DNA from: Fervidicoccaceae archaeon
Lineage (GTDB): Archaea; Thermoproteota; Thermoprotei_A; Sulfolobales; Fervidicoccaceae
DNA length: 64,000 nucleotides
NCBI GenBank assembly: GCA_038734945.1
Contig: JAVYOA010000001.1
Location: forward strand, 62,001-126,000
Reading direction: 5' to 3'
Part shown: in pieces, positions 35,604-43,865 of the stretch
How the letters are laid out: each line of letters opens with the position of its first letter
Position numbering within the stretch: position 1 is the stretch's first letter
Notes under the pieces: generated by a model
Told to the model about the DNA's origin: nothing
Databases searched by the model: none
What the model saw: only the letters and a program-made list of their open reading frames with translations
Translations under genes and position numbers: made by a program

Positions 35604-36308
35604 ATGGAGAGCTGCATACTTACTTTTGTGAAGTTCCTGGAGAACGAGGGAAAGATTGACGAGCAAGATCTCTCCACTCTAGAGTTCTCTAGGAGGTTGA
35701 GGGAAAAAATAAATTGGAAGCTTATAGGGGCAACAGTGGTAGGGGAGGAAAGCGATGCCTTGATATTGTCGAGGGAAGTGTTCAGCAGGGGGGCAGATGA
35801 AGTTCTTGCGCATATATGGAAAGGAAGGAAAGACAGCGATGTGCTCTCCTCTGCATTCATTATGAAGCGCTTCATAGATTATTCTAAGTGCAAGCTAGTC
35901 GTGTTCGGGGAAAGGAGCTCGGATACTTCATCAGGAAGTCTGGGTGCGTATGTTGCTGGATTGAGCGGAATGAGTCTTTTGATGTTTGTAAAAGAAGTAG
36001 TGGAAATTCAAGAGAAAAAAATAGTAGCTTCATCTGTTCTGAATGGTGAAATTTTGATTAGAGCTGAGCTTCCAGCTGTTCTTATACCTGCTGGGGAGCT
36101 CTTTTCTCCTAGACCAGTTCTAATAAGAGATAGGCTGGAGGCCAAGAGAAAAAGTCCCTCTCTTGTGTCTTTCAATGAGGAAGTTAATTCTCTGACTAGG
36201 CTTTTGTCCGTGCGTAAGCCTGAGTACAGGAAGAGAAGCTCGTTTGAGCTGAAGAGCGCCGAGGAAATTTTGAGAGTTTTTGCCAAGGTGGTAGGTGATA
36301 TTAGTTGA
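35604..36308 (+). CDS. etfB: Electron transfer flavoprotein beta subunit, divergent
   Basis: RGADE, FGERSSDTSSG, LPAVL, PRP...LEAKRK; overlaps an ETF alpha gene. Confidence 0.72.
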   Translation: MESCILTFVKFLENEGKIDEQDLSTLEFSRRLREKINWKLIGATVVGEESDALILSREVFSRGADEVLAHIWKGRKDSDVLSSAFIMKRFIDYSKCKLVVFGERSSDTSSGSLGAYVAGLSGMSLLMFVKEVVEIQEKKIVASSVLNGEILIRAELPAVLIPAGELFSPRPVLIRDRLEAKRKSPSLVSFNEEVNSLTRLLSVRKPEYRKRSSFELKSAEEILRVFAKVVGDIS

Positions 36309-37255
36309 GAGTTCTCGCTGCGATGTTGGGAAGATCCTCTGCCAAGTTATCCGCGCATGTGCTTTCAGCTTCTGCTCTCATTGGGGAGAGCGCCTCCCTT
36401 TTTGTATATGACCCCGAGCTGAGTAAAAATGAGGCATCTCTGAGCGTGCCCGCAGTTTTTGATGAGGGATGGCTTGCTATCGGAGAGCATCCTGTCTTGC
36501 CGGAGGAAATAAAGAACTGCTTAAGAAAAGTTCTTGAAATGGGTGATTTCTCTGCAGTTATCTTCAATGATTCTCCTCTTTCCTTCTGGGTTGCGCCTCT
36601 CCTAGCTGGAGAGCTCCGTCTTCCCATAATAACTGAAGTTATAGGAGCAAGGAAGGAGGAAAATAAAATCATCGTGATTAGGCCACTCAATCAGGAGTCA
36701 GTATGGGGAGAATATGAGATCCTCTCTGATAGGTTTGTTCTGATTATTAGAAGGGGAAGCCTATTTCCAAAGCCTTCAGAGTTGAAAAAAATGTTTTTGG
36801 AAGAGATGAAGATAGAGAAGATCGGTGGAAAAACTGAAGCAATAAGTTGGAGCGAAACTGATGGAAGCAAGCTGGAAGATGCTCCAATTGTAATTGGAAT
36901 CGGAGATGGAGTGAGGCAGAGTAATACTTTGAAGGAAGCTCTTGAGTTGGCAAAGATCCTGGGAGCCGAATACTGCTGCACTAAGCCTGTCGTGGAGAGT
37001 GGAATTATGGAAAGGGAGAGAATTGTTGGTATGAGTGGGAAGAGAATATCTCCCAAGCTATATATGGCCCTTGGGATCTCCGGATCTGCTTACCACCTTG
37101 CAGGGGTAATGTCCTCGGAAATTATATTGTCAATAAATCTGGACAGAAATTCTTCCATGAACAAGAACTCTGACTATTATTATGTTGGAGATCTTAGGAC
37201 GGTTCTACCAAGATTGATTGAGCTCTTCAGACAGATGCCCTCCTCTCCACCCTAG
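36305..37255 (+). CDS. etfA: Electron transfer flavoprotein alpha subunit, divergent
   Basis: LEDAPIVIGIG, VGMSGKRISPKLYMALGISG...HLAG, INLD, SDYYYVGDL. Confidence 0.85.
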   Translation: MRVLAAMLGRSSAKLSAHVLSASALIGESASLFVYDPELSKNEASLSVPAVFDEGWLAIGEHPVLPEEIKNCLRKVLEMGDFSAVIFNDSPLSFWVAPLLAGELRLPIITEVIGARKEENKIIVIRPLNQESVWGEYEILSDRFVLIIRRGSLFPKPSELKKMFLEEMKIEKIGGKTEAISWSETDGSKLEDAPIVIGIGDGVRQSNTLKEALELAKILGAEYCCTKPVVESGIMERERIVGMSGKRISPKLYMALGISGSAYHLAGVMSSEIILSINLDRNSSMNKNSDYYYVGDLRTVLPRLIELFRQMPSSPP

Positions 37256-37355
37256 AGGACGAGGCCTTCAGGTTGTAGAAAAGCAAAGCAGCGAAGCTTG
37301 ATAAGTTGATATAAAAATGAGAGGCTGTCTTTTTGTGCTTGACTGAGGCTACATG

Positions 37356-37670
37356 CTAATCTTCTTCGCTCAGAGCAATCTTTATGGGCTGCAATATGTG
37401 ATCTGGAATGTAGTATAGCTTGAAGCATTTATCCTTTGATGGCCTTGCCTCAATATAGGTCAAAAGTCCAGCCTTTTTCAGGTTGTTTATTGCTTTCTCT
37501 AGCCTCTTATAGTTAGTTCCAAGCTTTCTGGAGATTGCTCTGAAGCTGAGAGGTCCCTCTCTTATGATTAGCCTCAATATGGCTATTCTCAGATCATCAT
37601 CTATGGCCTTTACTATCAGTTTTGCTACTTGATTGTTCGCATCCCTTGCTTTCACGTCGATTTCTTCCAT
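37356..37670 (-). CDS. ArsR-like winged-helix transcriptional regulator
   Basis: LRIAILRLI..EGPLSFRAISRKLG...LKKAGLL...KLYYI. Confidence 0.75.
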   Translation of the reverse strand: MEEIDVKARDANNQVAKLIVKAIDDDLRIAILRLIIREGPLSFRAISRKLGTNYKRLEKAINNLKKAGLLTYIEARPSKDKCFKLYYIPDHILQPIKIALSEED

Positions 37671-37781
37671 ATTCCATGCTACCTTTCCCTTCGGTTTCTA
37701 CATACATAAAAGTATCATATAAAAATATTGCTTTTCAAATATATAATTTTTTCGTAATAGTGTGTTATATTGTTATTTCAT

Positions 37782-38765
37782 TTAGTCCAAAAATTTATAT
37801 ACGTAACAAATATCTCTATCATTTACAATATACTCTCCTTCACTGCCTGCAACAATTGGCCTCTCCAGTATTTTTGACGCCTTTACCAGCTCTTCAGGAT
37901 CCTTGAGCTCAATCCTCGTGGAAGTGCATAGAGGGTTCTGAGTGCTTCCTTTAATTATTATGCTGCCATATTTTTTCTCGAACTTCTCCTGCTCACTCGA
38001 TGCTCTGCTCTCCCTCACAGCTACATATAGGAAAAGGGAAGCAGTTCCAGCAATGGAAATTAGAATAGAAAGCGTTCTAGCAGTGGAAACACTCATTCCA
38101 GAGATGCTGTTCTGTATTATAGTGGAATTTGTTTTCGATATATTTGCTGAGTAGTGGAGTGGGGTGCCTATTTCTATCCTGTTTCTCGAAAGATCAACCT
38201 TGATAACTAGTTCGTGAGAGAAGACGCTCGTTGCTCTATATCCTCCAATGAGAACTTCTGCAGGACCGCTGGAGCTTATGCTTATATTATACGAAGTTAG
38301 CCTCAGACCTGCCTGTCTCGATAAATAGTCCATGTAGGATGTAACTTCGCTCAAGTTTAGCACAAAGGTTTTTGAGAATGAACTCATGCCAGTGACATTC
38401 ATGCTACTTAGGTAGTAGTTCTTTGTCCATCCGTCTGGATGAACTAGTGCTATGGTATACGTGGCATTTCCGCTGAAGCTCCCACCGCTCAGCTTCTCTG
38501 TTTGATTTACCACGATTTCATTGACTAGAGAAGCATAGATGGGAACACCTGTACTGAATGTTATATAGTCAGAGGGATATATCTCGTTGGGAAGAAAGTG
38601 AAGGTAGATCTGAAAGTCGGACTCTCTGAATTCATTGTACAGGAGGGTGGTTTTCGTCAGCTGCTCTGGTTTTGAGTAAGATGCAATTGAGAGTGCGAGG
38701 CCCGCAATTATCAGGAGAGCTGAGATGATTAGAAGGAGTGTGTGCTTCTTTGAGCCTCTGCTCAC
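37782..38765 (-). CDS. DUF5305-like membrane protein
   Basis: N-terminal TM, extracellular S/T-rich beta region, second TM, cytoplasmic KYGSIII...ELVKASKILERPI...YVY tail; next to a SipW-type peptidase. Confidence 0.7.
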   Translation of the reverse strand: MSRGSKKHTLLLIISALLIIAGLALSIASYSKPEQLTKTTLLYNEFRESDFQIYLHFLPNEIYPSDYITFSTGVPIYASLVNEIVVNQTEKLSGGSFSGNATYTIALVHPDGWTKNYYLSSMNVTGMSSFSKTFVLNLSEVTSYMDYLSRQAGLRLTSYNISISSSGPAEVLIGGYRATSVFSHELVIKVDLSRNRIEIGTPLHYSANISKTNSTIIQNSISGMSVSTARTLSILISIAGTASLFLYVAVRESRASSEQEKFEKKYGSIIIKGSTQNPLCTSTRIELKDPEELVKASKILERPIVAGSEGEYIVNDRDICYVYKFLD

Positions 38766-39967
38766 TTTCTGATGGCACCTCTTCCGTTTAAGCCTTTCTT
38801 CAGAATGAGAATTGCTGCTGATGCTATCAATAGCATAAATATGCTCCTCCCCTCTAAGCTTCCTGCTACATTATATATATAGCTTGCTCCATTTCTCAAG
38901 ATAATTGTTATCCATCCTATCCAAGGTATTTTCCATCTAACTGTCCCAATTATTTGCTCTATTTTTACTGGATCTGGATCTGCTGTTGGAAGGGCGTCTC
39001 CCCTTGTAACTAATCCTTCTTTGCTTATAGCAACAACTCTGTGGGCAATCAGCTCGCCATTGCTTCCTCTGTAGAGCACTATTTCCCCAAGCTCTGGAGA
39101 CCTATGAGAGAGGGAAACTATTACTATATCCCCTACTTCGAACTGAGGCTTCATGCTCTCGCTCACTATGACAAATGGCTGCAATCTAAGAGATATCATT
39201 GAAAGGAAGAGGATAGCTATAATGAGGAAGCTGCTGATGGGAATCAGCTGCTTCACAATTCTTTTCAATCTGCTGCTGAACAGAGTTAGTCTTGATCCCC
39301 TCAGAGTGCAGTTGAGAGATGAGAAATAAATGAGAAAGAAGAACAGAATGAGGGAATCGAAGCCATACCAAGCAGGTCCCAGAGAAGCGCGAGAAGCAGT
39401 TAGGGGAAAGATCCCCCAATATAAATCCTGGACGAATCTGAATAGAAATGTTGAAATTGGTCCTGAGAGTATTAGGATTGTAGTTAGAAGGGCGCTGTAA
39501 ATGATGAGGTCGAGAGCTCTAGCAGGAAGATTGTAAGAGGATTGCAGCAGAGATAAGGTAGATAGCACGCTTCCCTGGTATAGAAAGCCAGCCATAGTAC
39601 CAACTGCGTACTTCATGCTTTCCCTTTTCATGAATGATATTGATGCTGCTCTTAGTGTTTCAGCTCCAAGGTCCTGTATTGCTATGAGGGGAATATAGGA
39701 TAAAAGAAAGACCGGAGATAGAGCTTGTTTGAAGTCAAAACCGATAGCTAGGCCCATCATCGTGTATATAAGGAGGAGAGAAGTTGATGCTATTAGAGAA
39801 TCGGATAGCTTCAAGATTCCTTTTCCTCTTCTGTGGAGTAATCCTACCGCAGGAAGAACTGAGAGGATCCATAGGTTATAGGAAATCAGAAAGCCTGAGA
39901 AATTCCTCAAAAGTAGGGCTATGTTAGGAGCAAGGATGAGGAGGCTGGCTGAAATGCCAGCCATCAT
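38762..39967 (-). CDS. SipW-type (S26B) signal peptidase I with a large N-terminal polytopic domain
   Basis: VIVSESMKP, GDIV, IAHRV (Ser-His type), TRGDA..DP, IPWIGW. Confidence 0.85.
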   Translation of the reverse strand: MMAGISASLLILAPNIALLLRNFSGFLISYNLWILSVLPAVGLLHRRGKGILKLSDSLIASTSLLLIYTMMGLAIGFDFKQALSPVFLLSYIPLIAIQDLGAETLRAASISFMKRESMKYAVGTMAGFLYQGSVLSTLSLLQSSYNLPARALDLIIYSALLTTILILSGPISTFLFRFVQDLYWGIFPLTASRASLGPAWYGFDSLILFFFLIYFSSLNCTLRGSRLTLFSSRLKRIVKQLIPISSFLIIAILFLSMISLRLQPFVIVSESMKPQFEVGDIVIVSLSHRSPELGEIVLYRGSNGELIAHRVVAISKEGLVTRGDALPTADPDPVKIEQIIGTVRWKIPWIGWITIILRNGASYIYNVAGSLEGRSIFMLLIASAAILILKKGLNGRGAIRK

Positions 39968-40007
39968 GCTTTTCTTCTCTATTGTAAAAAAGCCTTTTCA
40001 CCTCGCT

Positions 40008-41501
40008 CTATTTCTCTTGATGCTGTTGAAGATATATGGTTGCTGAAGCGCTAGCGCTTCCGATATTCGTTATCAGAGTTGCATTGTTAGTGAAGTACTT
40101 ATCCACTGAGCTGTATTCCTGCCCATCTAACCAATCACTCATCTCAAATTTCAAATAGATTAGCACAGAGTCTCCAGAACTTAGTGGTGTTCCCAGGATA
40201 AGAGAGATTTTGGCAGTGTTGTTGTTATTATTGAGATAAATAATTGATGAATTTGTTATCTCATTGAGATTCGAGCCTTTCAATACAAATACATGAATGT
40301 CTGCATTTCCATGGCTAACTTTAACATCGAAATGATCCTCGAATACATCAGTAACGTTTATGCTGAAAATTCCGCTTCCAGTTATGTTCAGGAGTCCATA
40401 GAACACTCCTGGAACTGAGCTCTTTATTTTGCCGTTCTTATCAAGCGTAACGTTCACTATGTAGTTTCCATCCTTCATATCCAGAGGAGTTCCAAGGTAC
40501 CAGCCTGTGGTTTTCCAATTTACATCTGTGTGCCTGAAGTCCTTGGAGATTGAGAGGGAAGGAAATGGCTTCATGCCGAAGTTCAAATTGATTTTATTCT
40601 CTCCAGATGAGAGGCTAACCACTATCTCTGTATAGGTTGTGTTTGTATATCCAGCAGGAGGCATAACTTTAATTATGTAATTACCTGAAGGCAGATTGCC
40701 GAACGAGTAGAAGCCCAAGCTGTTTGTCACAGTCGTTGCTATTAACGCATTTGCGCTGTTCAGTAGCTGAAGTGCTATCCCTTGCAGGGGATCTTCAATA
40801 GGATCATATATTTGGTTCTCGTTAGCATCATGATAAACGTAGCCGCTCAGAGAGCCCCCTTGAACTGAGGGGGGTACCTGATATTCGTTCCACTGCACTG
40901 CCTCTATTGTTATGTTTATTATCAGTGTTGAGCCCATCGGAGCACTCTGCAGAACAACGACATCAAAGCTCAAGTCTGCGCTATTGCCAGGATGCAGCTG
41001 CACTCCAAAGTTATCTCCCCACCAAATGGATACATCTGGCAGTCCATCATTGTTCAGATCCAGGAGCTCGCTGCCATCTATAGCATAGTAATAGTTTCCG
41101 TTTATGCCAACTCTCCATATCTTCAGAGGTATAGTGCCATCGTTTTCCACCTTGAAGGCTGTGTGAGCATAGTACCAGGGATAGGCGTTGTAGATTACCA
41201 TGTTCAGTGTATCATGGTCTCCATCTCCATCGCTGTCTATGAGCTGTATTGCTGTGCATCCAACATTCTTGTCAAGTTGCGTTGCACCTGCATTTGGATA
41301 ATATGTTGCATTCCAATCGTAGCCTGGGAAAGAGCCGCAGGGATCGGATGTGATCACGCTACCTGGAACGAATCTTATATCTAGCTCTCCCGTATTTACA
41401 GAGGTGTTAACTTTGAGGCTTTCCCCCCACATGGCCATAGCTGCTGTTAAAATGCTGCCTATGAAGAGAAGAAGAAAAAACCATATCTTGCTGTTGTTCA
41501 T
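40008..41501 (-). CDS. TasA/AbpA-like secreted protein with an SdrD-B-like domain and a C-terminal beta domain
   Basis: Signal ending AMA|MWGESLKVNTSVNTGEL, NAYP, NDGTIP, QWNE; then LSGYVYHDAN...TTVTNSLGFYSFGNLPSGNY...NFG. Confidence 0.72.
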   Translation of the reverse strand: MNNSKIWFFLLLFIGSILTAAMAMWGESLKVNTSVNTGELDIRFVPGSVITSDPCGSFPGYDWNATYYPNAGATQLDKNVGCTAIQLIDSDGDGDHDTLNMVIYNAYPWYYAHTAFKVENDGTIPLKIWRVGINGNYYYAIDGSELLDLNNDGLPDVSIWWGDNFGVQLHPGNSADLSFDVVVLQSAPMGSTLIINITIEAVQWNEYQVPPSVQGGSLSGYVYHDANENQIYDPIEDPLQGIALQLLNSANALIATTVTNSLGFYSFGNLPSGNYIIKVMPPAGYTNTTYTEIVVSLSSGENKINLNFGMKPFPSLSISKDFRHTDVNWKTTGWYLGTPLDMKDGNYIVNVTLDKNGKIKSSVPGVFYGLLNITGSGIFSINVTDVFEDHFDVKVSHGNADIHVFVLKGSNLNEITNSSIIYLNNNNNTAKISLILGTPLSSGDSVLIYLKFEMSDWLDGQEYSSVDKYFTNNATLITNIGSASASATIYLQQHQEK

Positions 41502-41518
41502 TGTCAATTTCATCACTC

Positions 41519-42073
41519 TTATGGAGTAGTTACTTCATTCCACTGAGCAAATACCAGTGTTACCTCAAATGTATATTGGGCGTTCTCATCGGCGCTCTGA
41601 AGAACTGTTATGCTGAGTGCATATTGTCCAACATCGCCTGGATGAAGCTGGGTGCTCTGAGGTATAGAGAGAGATGCATTAAGGGCCGTACTGTTGAGGC
41701 CTGTTATGCTGCTTGAATACAGCTTAACAGGTATTGTTCCAATATTGGTTACATTGAAGGATATTACGGGAGAATAGCCTGGATACGCATTTCCTATGGT
41801 TACATTTAGCTTTATAACATTTCCATTGCTGTCTAGAACTTCAGATGCTACGCTGCACCATGCAACATCCTTTCCTTCGCTGTTGTCGAAGCCCTGTGCC
41901 TGGGGATCGCTTCCCTCATCGCTGCATTTCCATCCGCTAAATGCTACCTTGACCTCTCCTGTGTTTACTGTGACGTTTAGCCTCAGTGTTTCACTCCACA
42001 TTGCTACTGCTGAGGTTATTAGAGCGAGGGTCACTGCTATTGCTAAAATAGGTATAATATTTTTCCCTTCCAT
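41519..42073 (-). CDS. TasA/AbpA-like fibre subunit with a SipW-class signal peptide
   Basis: AVA|MWSETLRLNVTVNTGEV, GNAYPGY, VTNIGTIPV, QLHPG, FAQWNE; first gene of the sipW operon. Confidence 0.75.
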   Translation of the reverse strand: MEGKNIIPILAIAVTLALITSAVAMWSETLRLNVTVNTGEVKVAFSGWKCSDEGSDPQAQGFDNSEGKDVAWCSVASEVLDSNGNVIKLNVTIGNAYPGYSPVISFNVTNIGTIPVKLYSSSITGLNSTALNASLSIPQSTQLHPGDVGQYALSITVLQSADENAQYTFEVTLVFAQWNEVTTP

Positions 42074-42818
42074 TTTAATTTCACCAAAAAATAATTAAAA
42101 AAATGAGTTCTTTTCTCTGCATCAGCAAGTAGAACAGTTGTTTTTAAGCAATTAACTCGAAAAGCCTGTATTTTATTTATTGTTCAGCAGTAAGCACTTA
42201 TTATATATCAAAAATGTTGTTGCCTCTTCCACAACCAGCTATGAACCCTCTCATGAATAATGATTTCTCTGGCAGCGGGGAATTCCGCTATGTTCGTTAC
42301 TTCTCCTAGTCCCATGCCTCCTTTCAGGAGGTTCCTCTCAGCAACACATATTTTTATATATTCGAGCTGTCAGAGTGCTTCTAGCTATGTTTTTCATGAA
42401 GCTTGTTGAAAGACATTGCAAGTGCTTCCAACATCCCACCACACAATACTTTAAAAGGGTTAGTTAAGCAAATGAGTGAAGCATGCGCTGCTCCATGCTA
42501 AGTTCAATATAAGGATTAAGCACTGCTAATGCCCTCGATTTCTGAAACTGCACTATTGCTCTTCTCTCTGATGCTTGGAGGGCTATAGCTCTGCACATTC
42601 CTGGAAAGGCCGACGAACGCGATCTTTTTGCTAACCATAGCTTCTGCTAAAATCATCAGAGGTCCTCTTTTTTCTTGCTTAATATTTTTAAAATAATGGG
42701 AAAAATGTATAATTATTTTATTTTTTATCTTTTATAAAAAGAAAAGCTTAATATAATTAAGAATACTAATTTAATTTTTGAAATAAAGGAAAAAAACTTG
42801 TCTCCGCTGTGTGGTACC

Positions 42819-43865
42819 ATGAAGTACTACATTGGAAACAGAGATGCCGTGGAAAAGCTATTTGAGGAGCTGAAGGCTTCTGTTATGGTTGTTTATGGAC
42901 CAAAAGTGAAAAATGGAAGTATTGTTTATGGAGAGCTGAATTCAATTAACGAACTCCCATTGGGAGTTGGTGGCATCAGCTCTCTGACGCACCACTCAGT
43001 CAAGGAAGTAGCTCATCCACCTGTTCAGGACTACATAGTCACAGAGGGAAATTATACTTCATATTTAGCTTCTGTGGGGGTAAGCAGTTGGGCACTCTTT
43101 GGTGTTAGACCATGCGATGTTAGTTCGATCAAGATTCTCGATGCCCTTCTCTCGGATGATCCCATCTACAGGCAGAGAAGAGAGAGGTTGCTCTGGATAG
43201 TTGCTGAAGAGTGCTTGGAGGTTGGCCCCTATTGCTTCTGTGGATCCCTGGAAACAGGTCCCTCTGCTACAGAGGGATTCGACATATCCTATGCTTTCAT
43301 AGGGAGAGACTGCGTCCTTTTCAGGAGCGGGACTGAGAGGGGGGACGAGCTTCTATCGAGAATTCCTGTTAGGGAAATTGATGGAGAAAGCAGTGAGCTT
43401 CGGTTTTATGAGAAGAAGGTGGAGGAGGGAAGGAAAAAGGCTGTGAGTGAAACTCTGGCTGTGAGGAATGGATTTGGGGATGCCCTGGATAGATCAATGC
43501 ATGATGCTCAGCTCTGGAGGAAGTTGAGTGAGAGCTGTCTTGGATGCTCAAACTGTAACATGGTTTGCCCTACATGCTCCTGCACTGAGTTCATCGATGA
43601 TCTGAAAATGGATGGAAGTGCCAAGAGAAGCAGGCTCTGGGTTGGATGTCTTTCTCCAGTATATGGGCAAATTGCGGGGATGCATTTCAGAAAGGAGCAA
43701 TACATGAGGTACAGACACTTTGTCCTGCATAAGTTCCTATTCTCCTCATGGAGAATTAAGAGGAATGCATGTGTAGGCTGCGGAAGATGCATCGCCTTTT
43801 GTCCCATGGGAATCGATCTCAGAAAATCGCTTGAGGAGGTGCTTAGCTCCTATGGCCGCAAGTAG
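42819..43865 (+). CDS. hydB: Sulfhydrogenase (group 3b) beta subunit, 4Fe-4S
   Basis: FGVRPCD, C...YCFC, CLGCSNCNMVCPTCSC, HKF, CVGCGRCIAFCP. Confidence 0.88.
   Translation: MKYYIGNRDAVEKLFEELKASVMVVYGPKVKNGSIVYGELNSINELPLGVGGISSLTHHSVKEVAHPPVQDYIVTEGNYTSYLASVGVSSWALFGVRPCDVSSIKILDALLSDDPIYRQRRERLLWIVAEECLEVGPYCFCGSLETGPSATEGFDISYAFIGRDCVLFRSGTERGDELLSRIPVREIDGESSELRFYEKKVEEGRKKAVSETLAVRNGFGDALDRSMHDAQLWRKLSESCLGCSNCNMVCPTCSCTEFIDDLKMDGSAKRSRLWVGCLSPVYGQIAGMHFRKEQYMRYRHFVLHKFLFSSWRIKRNACVGCGRCIAFCPMGIDLRKSLEEVLSSYGRK

Follow-up and report, generated by a model that had tools for sequence, protein, structure and literature searches.

The closest described counterparts of the locus reported here are the AbpX-type fibre loci, which in the available portion of bioRxiv 10.64898/2026.01.04.697558 carry genes for major, minor and tip subunits, a signal peptidase with ten transmembrane (TM) helices, a DUF5305 accessory protein and occasionally a regulator, and which are described there with Desulfurococcales such as Zestosphaera tikiterensis among their hosts. 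AbpX-like loci range across Thermoproteota, Bacillota and Chloroflexota according to the accessible sections of that preprint and of PMC12518558. Fibrils of AbpX have been found experimentally to polymerise by donor-strand complementation, with a W2 clamp, an E4 that serves as calcium ligand and buried even positions in the donor strand, and the clade is characterised by a pI of about 4, some 15% Asp/Glu and calcium coordination that is frequent but not universal (10.64898/2026.01.04.697558, as far as its available text goes). Such fibres were recognised only in 2025-2026, and the AbpX of Pyrodictium abyssi is the sole member studied so far. A second comparison is offered by the Tafi loci of haloarchaea, for which the accessible parts of PMC11821415 and PMC12337348 list TafA/E pilins, a TafC tip, a TafD peptidase, a DUF5305 protein (TafG) and a regulator (TafB). 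We analysed a locus of five genes in a 64,000-nucleotide stretch of a Fervidicoccaceae archaeon (contig JAVYOA010000001.1, positions 62,001 to 126,000; hereafter the window), which an earlier, sequence-only reading had taken for an undescribed TasA/AbpA-like fibre system. This locus very probably specifies an extracellular fibre of AbpX type, within the TasA superfamily, that is processed by its own peptidase. As a type it is already in print, and the claim of novelty has to be withdrawn: AbpX-type loci with exactly these components appear in the available portion of 10.64898/2026.01.04.697558, and AbpX-like proteins of P. delaneyi in that of PMC12518558. What the locus adds is a further archaeal member, whose second subunit is a fusion specific to its lineage.

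The family assignment comes from the major subunit (A, 184 aa). Searched against PDB sequences, A matched the solved P. abyssi AbpX (9sj2_C, E 3.4e-8), with W-S-E-T-L aligned residue for residue, as well as 9rhp, a self-complemented construct; a profile of 39 A homologues matched AbpX at E 2.7e-14 and retrieved no TasA or AbpA chain at E<=10, AbpX being its only match among PDB sequences. At E<=0.1, Pfam gave no family for A and none of the TasA/camelysin kind, which we take to be Peptidase_M73, for the second subunit (B, 502 aa). A word-index search with A returned 258 relatives at E<=0.001 among 498 candidates, the best non-self sequence being 65% identical. Among named proteins, A is 63% identical to P. 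delaneyi WP_055409108.1 / A0A0N7JD56 (P0011), called AbpX-like in the accessible part of PMC12518558, and 55% identical to Z. tikiterensis A0A2R7Y7S4 (P0075), the 'major AbpX pilin' in that of bioRxiv 10.64898/2026.01.04.697558. Thus the earlier proposal stands as far as a donor-strand fibre locus of the TasA superfamily is concerned, and the family within it is AbpX-like rather than TasA or AbpA.

Gene content and synteny agree with this assignment. All five open reading frames (ORFs) are co-oriented on the minus strand within 37356-42073, as had been noted from the sequence, and they encode A, B, a dedicated signal peptidase, a DUF5305 protein and a small winged-helix (wHTH) protein (Table 1), in a gene order that matches the Z. 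tikiterensis locus (L039). For comparison we used 67 related loci from reference genomes, 54 of which have a clear A orthologue and 33 of these at least 4 kb of sequence downstream of A. Synteny is conserved across this last set: the long peptidase is present in 32 of the 33 loci and a DUF5305 gene follows it in 31. A separate paralogue of about 225 aa and of the 'minor' (M) type adjoins A in 31 of 33, while a further 'tip' gene of 440-472 aa (5/33) and a wHTH gene (4/33) are less frequent.

The two secreted proteins are paralogues, as had been claimed: they align over about 195 residues with 31% identity (E 2e-23) and share a mature N-terminus (A|MWSETLRLNVTVNTGE in A, A|MWGESLKVNTSVNTGE in B) and the motifs NAYP, N(I/D)GTIP, QLHPG and QWNE. 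In A, a signal peptide (residues 1-24, AVA|M) is followed by the donor strand (about 25-40, MWSETLRLNVTVNTGE) and a beta-sandwich core (43-177); the cleavage contexts are AVA|MWSETLRLNVTV in A and AMA|MWGESLKVNTSV in B. Across the 39 A homologues, the residue before the cut is Ala in 36, and the mature N-terminus has Met1 in 38, Trp2 in all 39, Glu/Asp4 in 35, Leu6 in 37 and I, V or L at position 8 in 37; the same cleavage-site and donor-strand pattern recurs in 36 M-type and tip proteins. This is the pattern that the bioRxiv preprint ties to donor-strand complementation. Further into the protein, a Cys50-Cys73 pair is kept in 38 of 39 homologues, together with conserved NAYPGY, NIGTIPVKL and FAQWNEV blocks.

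A separate observation concerns position 9 of the donor strand, which is Asn in 36 of 39 major subunits and in 36 of 36 M or tip proteins. This Asn is part of an N-x-S/T sequon in 24 of the 39 major subunits, including A (NVT, residues 33-35, window 41969-41977), and also in B (NTS, residues 37-39, window 41400-41408). The available text of PMC9245690 reports AbpA to be glycosylated on its donor strand.

For the peptidase, the Ser-His assignment of the sequence-only reading was confirmed by a match to TIGR02228 (archaeal signal peptidase I; 72.5 bits, cut-off 51.85, E 3.4e-20) and by 37 homologues from related loci, in which Ser271, Met272, Pro274, His309, Arg310, Gly323, Asp324 and Asp330 are invariant; with the catalytic Ser271, His309 and Asp324 among these residues, it is a Sec11/SipW-type Ser/His enzyme and looks active. 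Identity with the SipW equivalog itself was rejected (NF046067, 39.8 bits against a cut-off of 190). The protein consists of a polytopic membrane domain (1-235), an anchor helix (236-262), the catalytic part (about 263-365) and a C-terminal TM helix (370-392). Its hydropathy profile has 8 clear peaks and shows about 10 helices by eye, which agrees with the 'ten TM' peptidase of the bioRxiv preprint. Since the source genome also holds a short housekeeping S26 paralogue, besides a third S26 gene, the locus peptidase is an extra copy.

We found no family match for the N-terminal membrane domain. None of the 37 members matched Pfam there, none of the 37 peptidases matched PF02517 (CPBP/CAAX-protease) at E<=1, and the source genome had no such match at 1e-8. 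When the 37 domains were compared with 20 CPBP proteins in hhalign, the probability was 1.7% (P 0.029), with a conserved E103-x-x-R paired with EExxxR, which we take to be the CPBP motif; Atlas returned only unnamed clusters (0.89). As a separate feature of six Zestosphaera-like loci (L013, L033, L035, L043, L048 and L051), a short S26 gene (141-163 aa) lies about 2-3 kb upstream of the A orthologue on the opposite strand; wherever the flank extends far enough, the long peptidase is present as well. The window has nothing like it.

The DUF5305 protein was recognised by PF17231 (55.8 bits, cut-off 29, E 5.5e-15), and hydropathy supports the two TM helices read from the sequence, in the order TM (5-32), outside domain, TM (231-251) and cytoplasmic tail. 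It had been regarded as a membrane anchor or assembly platform, a role that gives way to another: the literature, in the available portions of 10.64898/2026.01.04.697558 and PMC11821415, reads DUF5305 as an accessory subunit of the dedicated peptidase. A natural fusion fits that reading and supports a joint function, in that a 780-aa frame of an uncultured Desulfurococcales genome (L060 9355-11694, plus strand) carries both Peptidase_S26 (263-330) and DUF5305 (573-776). By analogy, the DUF5305 protein of our locus is probably the accessory subunit of its peptidase. The last gene, correctly described as wHTH, matches HTH_24 (28.7 bits, cut-off 21.9) and PF25212 (29.0 bits, cut-off 27.6) and has no PDB sequence match at E<=0.01; homologues occur in 5 of the 67 related loci, after DUF5305 in L020, L021, L029 and L058 and upstream of the subunit genes in L063.

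From homology with AbpX and Tafi, we infer the following course of assembly. Both A and B would be exported by Sec and cut after Ala24 and Ala28, respectively, by the locus's own Ser/His peptidase, probably together with the DUF5305 protein, so that the N-terminus MW(S/G)E(T/S)L becomes exposed. In Haloarcula, both Tafi and the processing of TafA are lost when the dedicated peptidase, TafD, is deleted (accessible part of PMC11821415). The amphipathic strand, with W2, an acidic residue at position 4 and hydrophobic residues at 6/8/10/12, would then enter the open groove of the next subunit, and A would polymerise without a chaperone. B would be built into this polymer by means of a donor strand and pilin domain of its own and would display a stalk and head, most likely as an adhesive or cross-linking element, and the wHTH protein is probably the regulator of the operon.

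What sets this locus apart is B, which is made up of a signal peptide (1-28, AMA|M) with an AbpX-like pilin domain (together 1-216), an SdrD_B stalk (222-310) and a 184-residue C-terminal domain, here called the head. The pilin domain is 49-63% identical to M proteins of about 225 aa that 30 other loci encode as separate genes and 56% identical to Z. tikiterensis A0A2R7Y7T0, the 'AbpX-like minor fibril subunit' in the available text of bioRxiv 10.64898/2026.01.04.697558. A quick maximum-likelihood tree of 112 domains places it within a clade of 49 M proteins (SH-aLRT, the Shimodaira-Hasegawa-like approximate likelihood-ratio test, 100). M genes end 5-15 residues past QWNEY, where B continues into the stalk, and there is no separate M gene in the source genome. 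The stalk was identified by PF17210 (E 1.9e-16, 60.7 bits) and by the PDB sequences of SdrD (1.7e-11) and UafA (1.1e-8). For the head (319-502), Pfam gave no match and Atlas only a DUF11-like lead (score 0.91), and it is homologous (E 5e-16 to 2e-35) to the C-terminal domain encoded by the tip genes of 440-472 aa, six of which occur among all 67 loci (L020, L021, L029, L036, L054 and L058). In those six tips, stalk and head are both homologous to those of B, and the pilin domains are closer to A than to M. As judged from these homologies, B joins the minor subunit to the outer two thirds of a tip protein, which elsewhere are separate genes.

No other protein with this architecture was found. 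The combination of a minor pilin with the stalk and head is absent from all 54 loci with a clear A orthologue, and when 5.8 billion proteins were searched for M-type domains within proteins of 276-879 aa (424 candidates scored), only B's own cluster came back, with 9 members on 13 contigs; a second fusion might be listed in the preprint supplements, which lie outside these searches. Searches with the whole of B, by word index and in a representative library, were dominated by giant SdrD_B-repeat proteins and are uninformative on the fusion. It is not an assembly artefact, because metagenome contigs from two studies span all of B with 1-3 differences. Partial precedents exist. In the genome whose A protein is the sequence named Ignisphaera aggregans at its source (G011), the third gene (418 aa, L082 880-2136, minus strand) has an M-like domain 43% identical to that of B, followed by a Pro/Thr linker and an unrelated head. 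In the Z. tikiterensis tip (L039 9326-10312, plus strand), both ends match the B pilin domain and about 150 unrelated residues lie between them, as if a module had been inserted into an M-like domain. From these alignments, tip proteins of the AbpX-like family are modular, as the accessible part of 10.64898/2026.01.04.697558 also remarks.

Several results weigh against the assignment of this locus to AbpX-type fibres. The AlphaFold2 (AF2) model of A (pLDDT 90, pTM 0.75) in itself speaks for it, with a signal helix (6-23), residues 24-42 without regular structure (the donor segment) and eight strands between 43 and 177, but Foldseek against the PDB found nothing for it at E<=1e-3, the weak rows including CfaB, FimG, the Saci_0406 thread, TasA and AbpA. 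By VIA, the best Z scores (7.2-7.4) were for integrin hybrid domains, with the 7pnb thread at 6.8 (root-mean-square deviation, rmsd, 9.0), AbpA 7ueg at 6.4 (rmsd 4.0, 123 residues aligned) and TasA 8aur at 5.5, none of them prominent; AbpX entries did not turn up in the fold libraries searched. The model is a beta-sandwich with a free N-terminal segment, and its matches are generic to beta-sandwiches, which speaks neither for nor against the TasA/AbpA-like fold of the sequence-only reading. Because no family is singled out by structure, the AbpX membership of A draws on sequence and locus context and not on fold. The composition of A is also unusual, as its mature form contains 9.4% Asp+Glu, the second lowest of 39 (median 15.6%), with a pI of 4.2. 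Among the AbpX calcium ligands that we compared (E4, D18, D46, D48, E52 and E142), A retains E4 and D46 only, with D18 replaced by K, D48 by N and E52 by I and with no clear counterpart of E142, which makes calcium-triggered assembly here uncertain. No membrane anchor is evident within the locus. Finally, the traces in one metatranscriptome were limited to short contigs (96-98% identity) that match A, B, the peptidase and the wHTH gene; as such contigs do not reveal the strand or prove that DNA was absent, they are a weak hint of expression at most. A further candidate, identity of A with the AbpA bundling pilin, was rejected on the missing sequence match, a Z of 6.4 that is not above background and the presence of a dedicated peptidase in the locus.

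The missing anchor bears on the place of B in the fibre. Instead of a distal tip, B might be a TapA-like nucleator or cell-proximal end piece whose donor strand starts the fibre while its stalk and head hold the envelope, a reading that we regard as possible but somewhat doubtful. B shares its donor strand with A, the locus has no other anchor candidate, TapA of B. subtilis is reported to act on TasA through strand complementation (available part of PMC10151520), and AbpB has been proposed to start ABP assembly likewise (available part of PMC9245690). Nevertheless, B lacks a C-terminal TM helix and any known wall-binding domain, and equivalent multi-domain proteins are called tips, from AlphaFold3 (AF3) models, in the accessible text of 10.64898/2026.01.04.697558. 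The position of B in the polymer is not readable from its sequence, which would suit a distal tip, a lateral cross-linker or a TapA-like starter.

The distribution of the locus raises a second alternative, that it is a silent, recently acquired or decaying cassette without a role in the organism. A search with B recovered the locus from 7 of 23 further genomes of the order and from none of 7 further genomes of the family (61-99% complete, four of them at least 90%), where a profile of A likewise gave 0 of 7. In a genome of the same genus (G002, 98% complete; C26:13386-15535, L086), orthologues of the two bordering genes, at 36305-37255 and 42798-43865 in the window, are 173-182 bp apart as against 5.5 kb here, so the whole fibre locus (window 37256-42797) is a 5.5-kb indel. 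These absences, the adjacency of the bordering genes in the congener and the weakness of the signs of transcription speak for a cassette of that kind. We consider it unlikely all the same, given five intact ORFs with catalytic residues kept, a base composition ordinary for the genome (GC 0.424 against 0.431, with 32% of genome windows having a tetranucleotide distance at least as large), near-identical DNA in hot-spring metagenome contigs of two studies and the metatranscriptome contigs themselves. Recent horizontal transfer, which the indel had brought into question, is not supported by this composition, and no flanking repeats were found around the locus. That A and B are instead non-polymerising surface or S-layer-associated proteins sharing the signal-peptide class of a dedicated peptidase is very improbable: the generic beta-sandwich matches of the A model and the poorly conserved calcium ligands would suit such proteins, but the donor-strand pattern matches that of AbpX, a solved fibril, residue for residue, the donor segment is unstructured in the A monomer model, as a donor strand would be, and the locus type is conserved.

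With the AbpX-type fibre as the preferred reading, the question of calcium may shift from A to B. The B pilin domain (pI 4.05, 12.3% Asp+Glu) keeps the AbpX ligands E4 and D18, and the SdrD_B domain has a D-x-N-x-N loop aligned to the SdrD repeat. Two Asp-rich loops, D(S/T)DGDGDxD and D(L)xxDGxPD then WWGDNFG, are conserved in M-type minor subunits (L007-L060) and in B, whose copies are DSDGDGDHD and DLNNDGLPD, and are missing from major subunits; we take them to resemble calcium-binding loops. With A poor in ligands and these loops in B, calcium control, if there is any, may be located in B. More tentatively, B can be seen as a 'Rosetta-stone' fusion in which the M and tip genes merged in this lineage; taken with the scarcity of calcium ligands in A, the locus would then encode a minimal two-subunit, maybe calcium-independent AbpX fibre on a 5.5-kb cassette gained or lost as a unit. 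If this is true, the fusion would imply that the conserved M-type minor subunit is the adaptor carrying the adhesive head on AbpX fibres.

Coordinates of the genes and domains are collected in Table 1. The genes for A and B abut, a gap of 40 nt separates B from the peptidase gene, the peptidase and DUF5305 genes overlap by 4 nt and a gap of 111 nt precedes the wHTH gene. A GGTGA lies 10-14 nt ahead of A's ATG. For B we give the frame from GTG; a public cluster (P0121) begins at an ATG five codons in, giving 497 aa. Rfam matched nothing in 37000-43000.

Table 1. Features of the AbpX-type fibre locus, in window coordinates.
Feature	Coordinates	Strand	Evidence
A, AbpX-like major fibre subunit, 184 aa	41519-42073	-	PDB sequence and family profile matches, AF2 model
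B, second subunit, 502 aa from GTG	40008-41516	-	ORF
B pilin (jelly-roll) domain, residues 29-216, 'minor' (M) type	40869-41432	-	M-type identity and tree
B SdrD_B / prealbumin-like stalk, residues 222-310	40587-40853	-	PF17210, PDB sequences
B C-terminal head, residues 319-502	40011-40562	-	homology to tip genes of six loci
Dedicated signal peptidase I, 401 aa	38762-39967	-	TIGR02228
DUF5305 protein, 327 aa	37782-38765	-	PF17231
Small winged-helix (wHTH) protein, 104 aa	37356-37670	-	HTH_24, PF25212
AT-rich intergenic region, 724 bp, presumed promoter region of A	42074-42797		sequence, GC 0.37

A second fibre-like locus was noted on the minus strand about 2 kb beyond the end of the window (G000:C1:127967-131722, L006 3967-7722). 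It comprises genes for a 192-aa secreted protein, a 460-aa protein, a 374-aa peptidase, which is the third S26 enzyme of the genome, and a 205-aa polytopic membrane protein. Neither structural protein matched Pfam or PDB sequences, and the two are only weakly similar to each other (E 0.043). In the peptidase, the catalytic part is N-terminal and is followed by a long C-terminal part, which has no similarity to DUF5305.

For the study of AbpX-type fibres, the locus is a compact archaeal case, having no more than two subunit genes next to an intact pair of peptidase and DUF5305. The fusion of minor and tip subunits in B hints at the subunit that bears the head domain, and the acid-poor A provides a natural test of the need for calcium in assembly. 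The remaining biology is as the published description predicts and holds no surprise for a specialist.

Among known systems, the locus can be compared with the bundling pili of Pyrobaculum calidifontis. With AbpA/AbpB it shares a Sec-exported jelly-roll pilin cut at AxA, an N-terminal donor strand and a wHTH gene in the operon, whereas no sequence match is detectable and the ABP operons have neither a dedicated peptidase nor DUF5305 (available part of PMC9245690). The sequence-only reading had supposed those pili to be cleaved by SipW, which is contradicted there, as that part of the paper reports finding no dedicated signal peptidase gene near the ABP operon. The tapA-sipW-tasA operon of B. 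subtilis resembles ours in its secreted jelly-roll subunit, a minor subunit with extra domains, a dedicated Sec11-type peptidase and donor-strand assembly; it differs in that SipW is without the long membrane domain, the operon is without DUF5305, and A and B are without a TasA/camelysin Pfam match. With Tafi, as far as the loci are described in the accessible text, the likeness extends to a dedicated S26 peptidase and a DUF5305 protein, besides a regulator, pilins of the donor-strand kind and a multi-domain tip. The signal peptides of Tafi pilins are of the Tat class, however, while the N-regions of A and B are without twin arginine; TafD combines four TM helices with an outside domain at its C-terminus, in contrast to the eight-helix N-terminal domain of the locus peptidase, and the locus has no TafF-like anchor. 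The agreement is closest with the abpX loci, which have a homologous major subunit with the W2/E4 donor strand, an AbpX-like second subunit, a many-TM peptidase, DUF5305 and an occasional regulator, P. abyssi itself having only abpX and the peptidase according to the available portion of 10.64898/2026.01.04.697558. From these loci ours departs in an A that is less acidic and without most of the AbpX calcium ligands, and in a B that merges the minor pilin with the stalk and head which six other loci carry on a tip gene.

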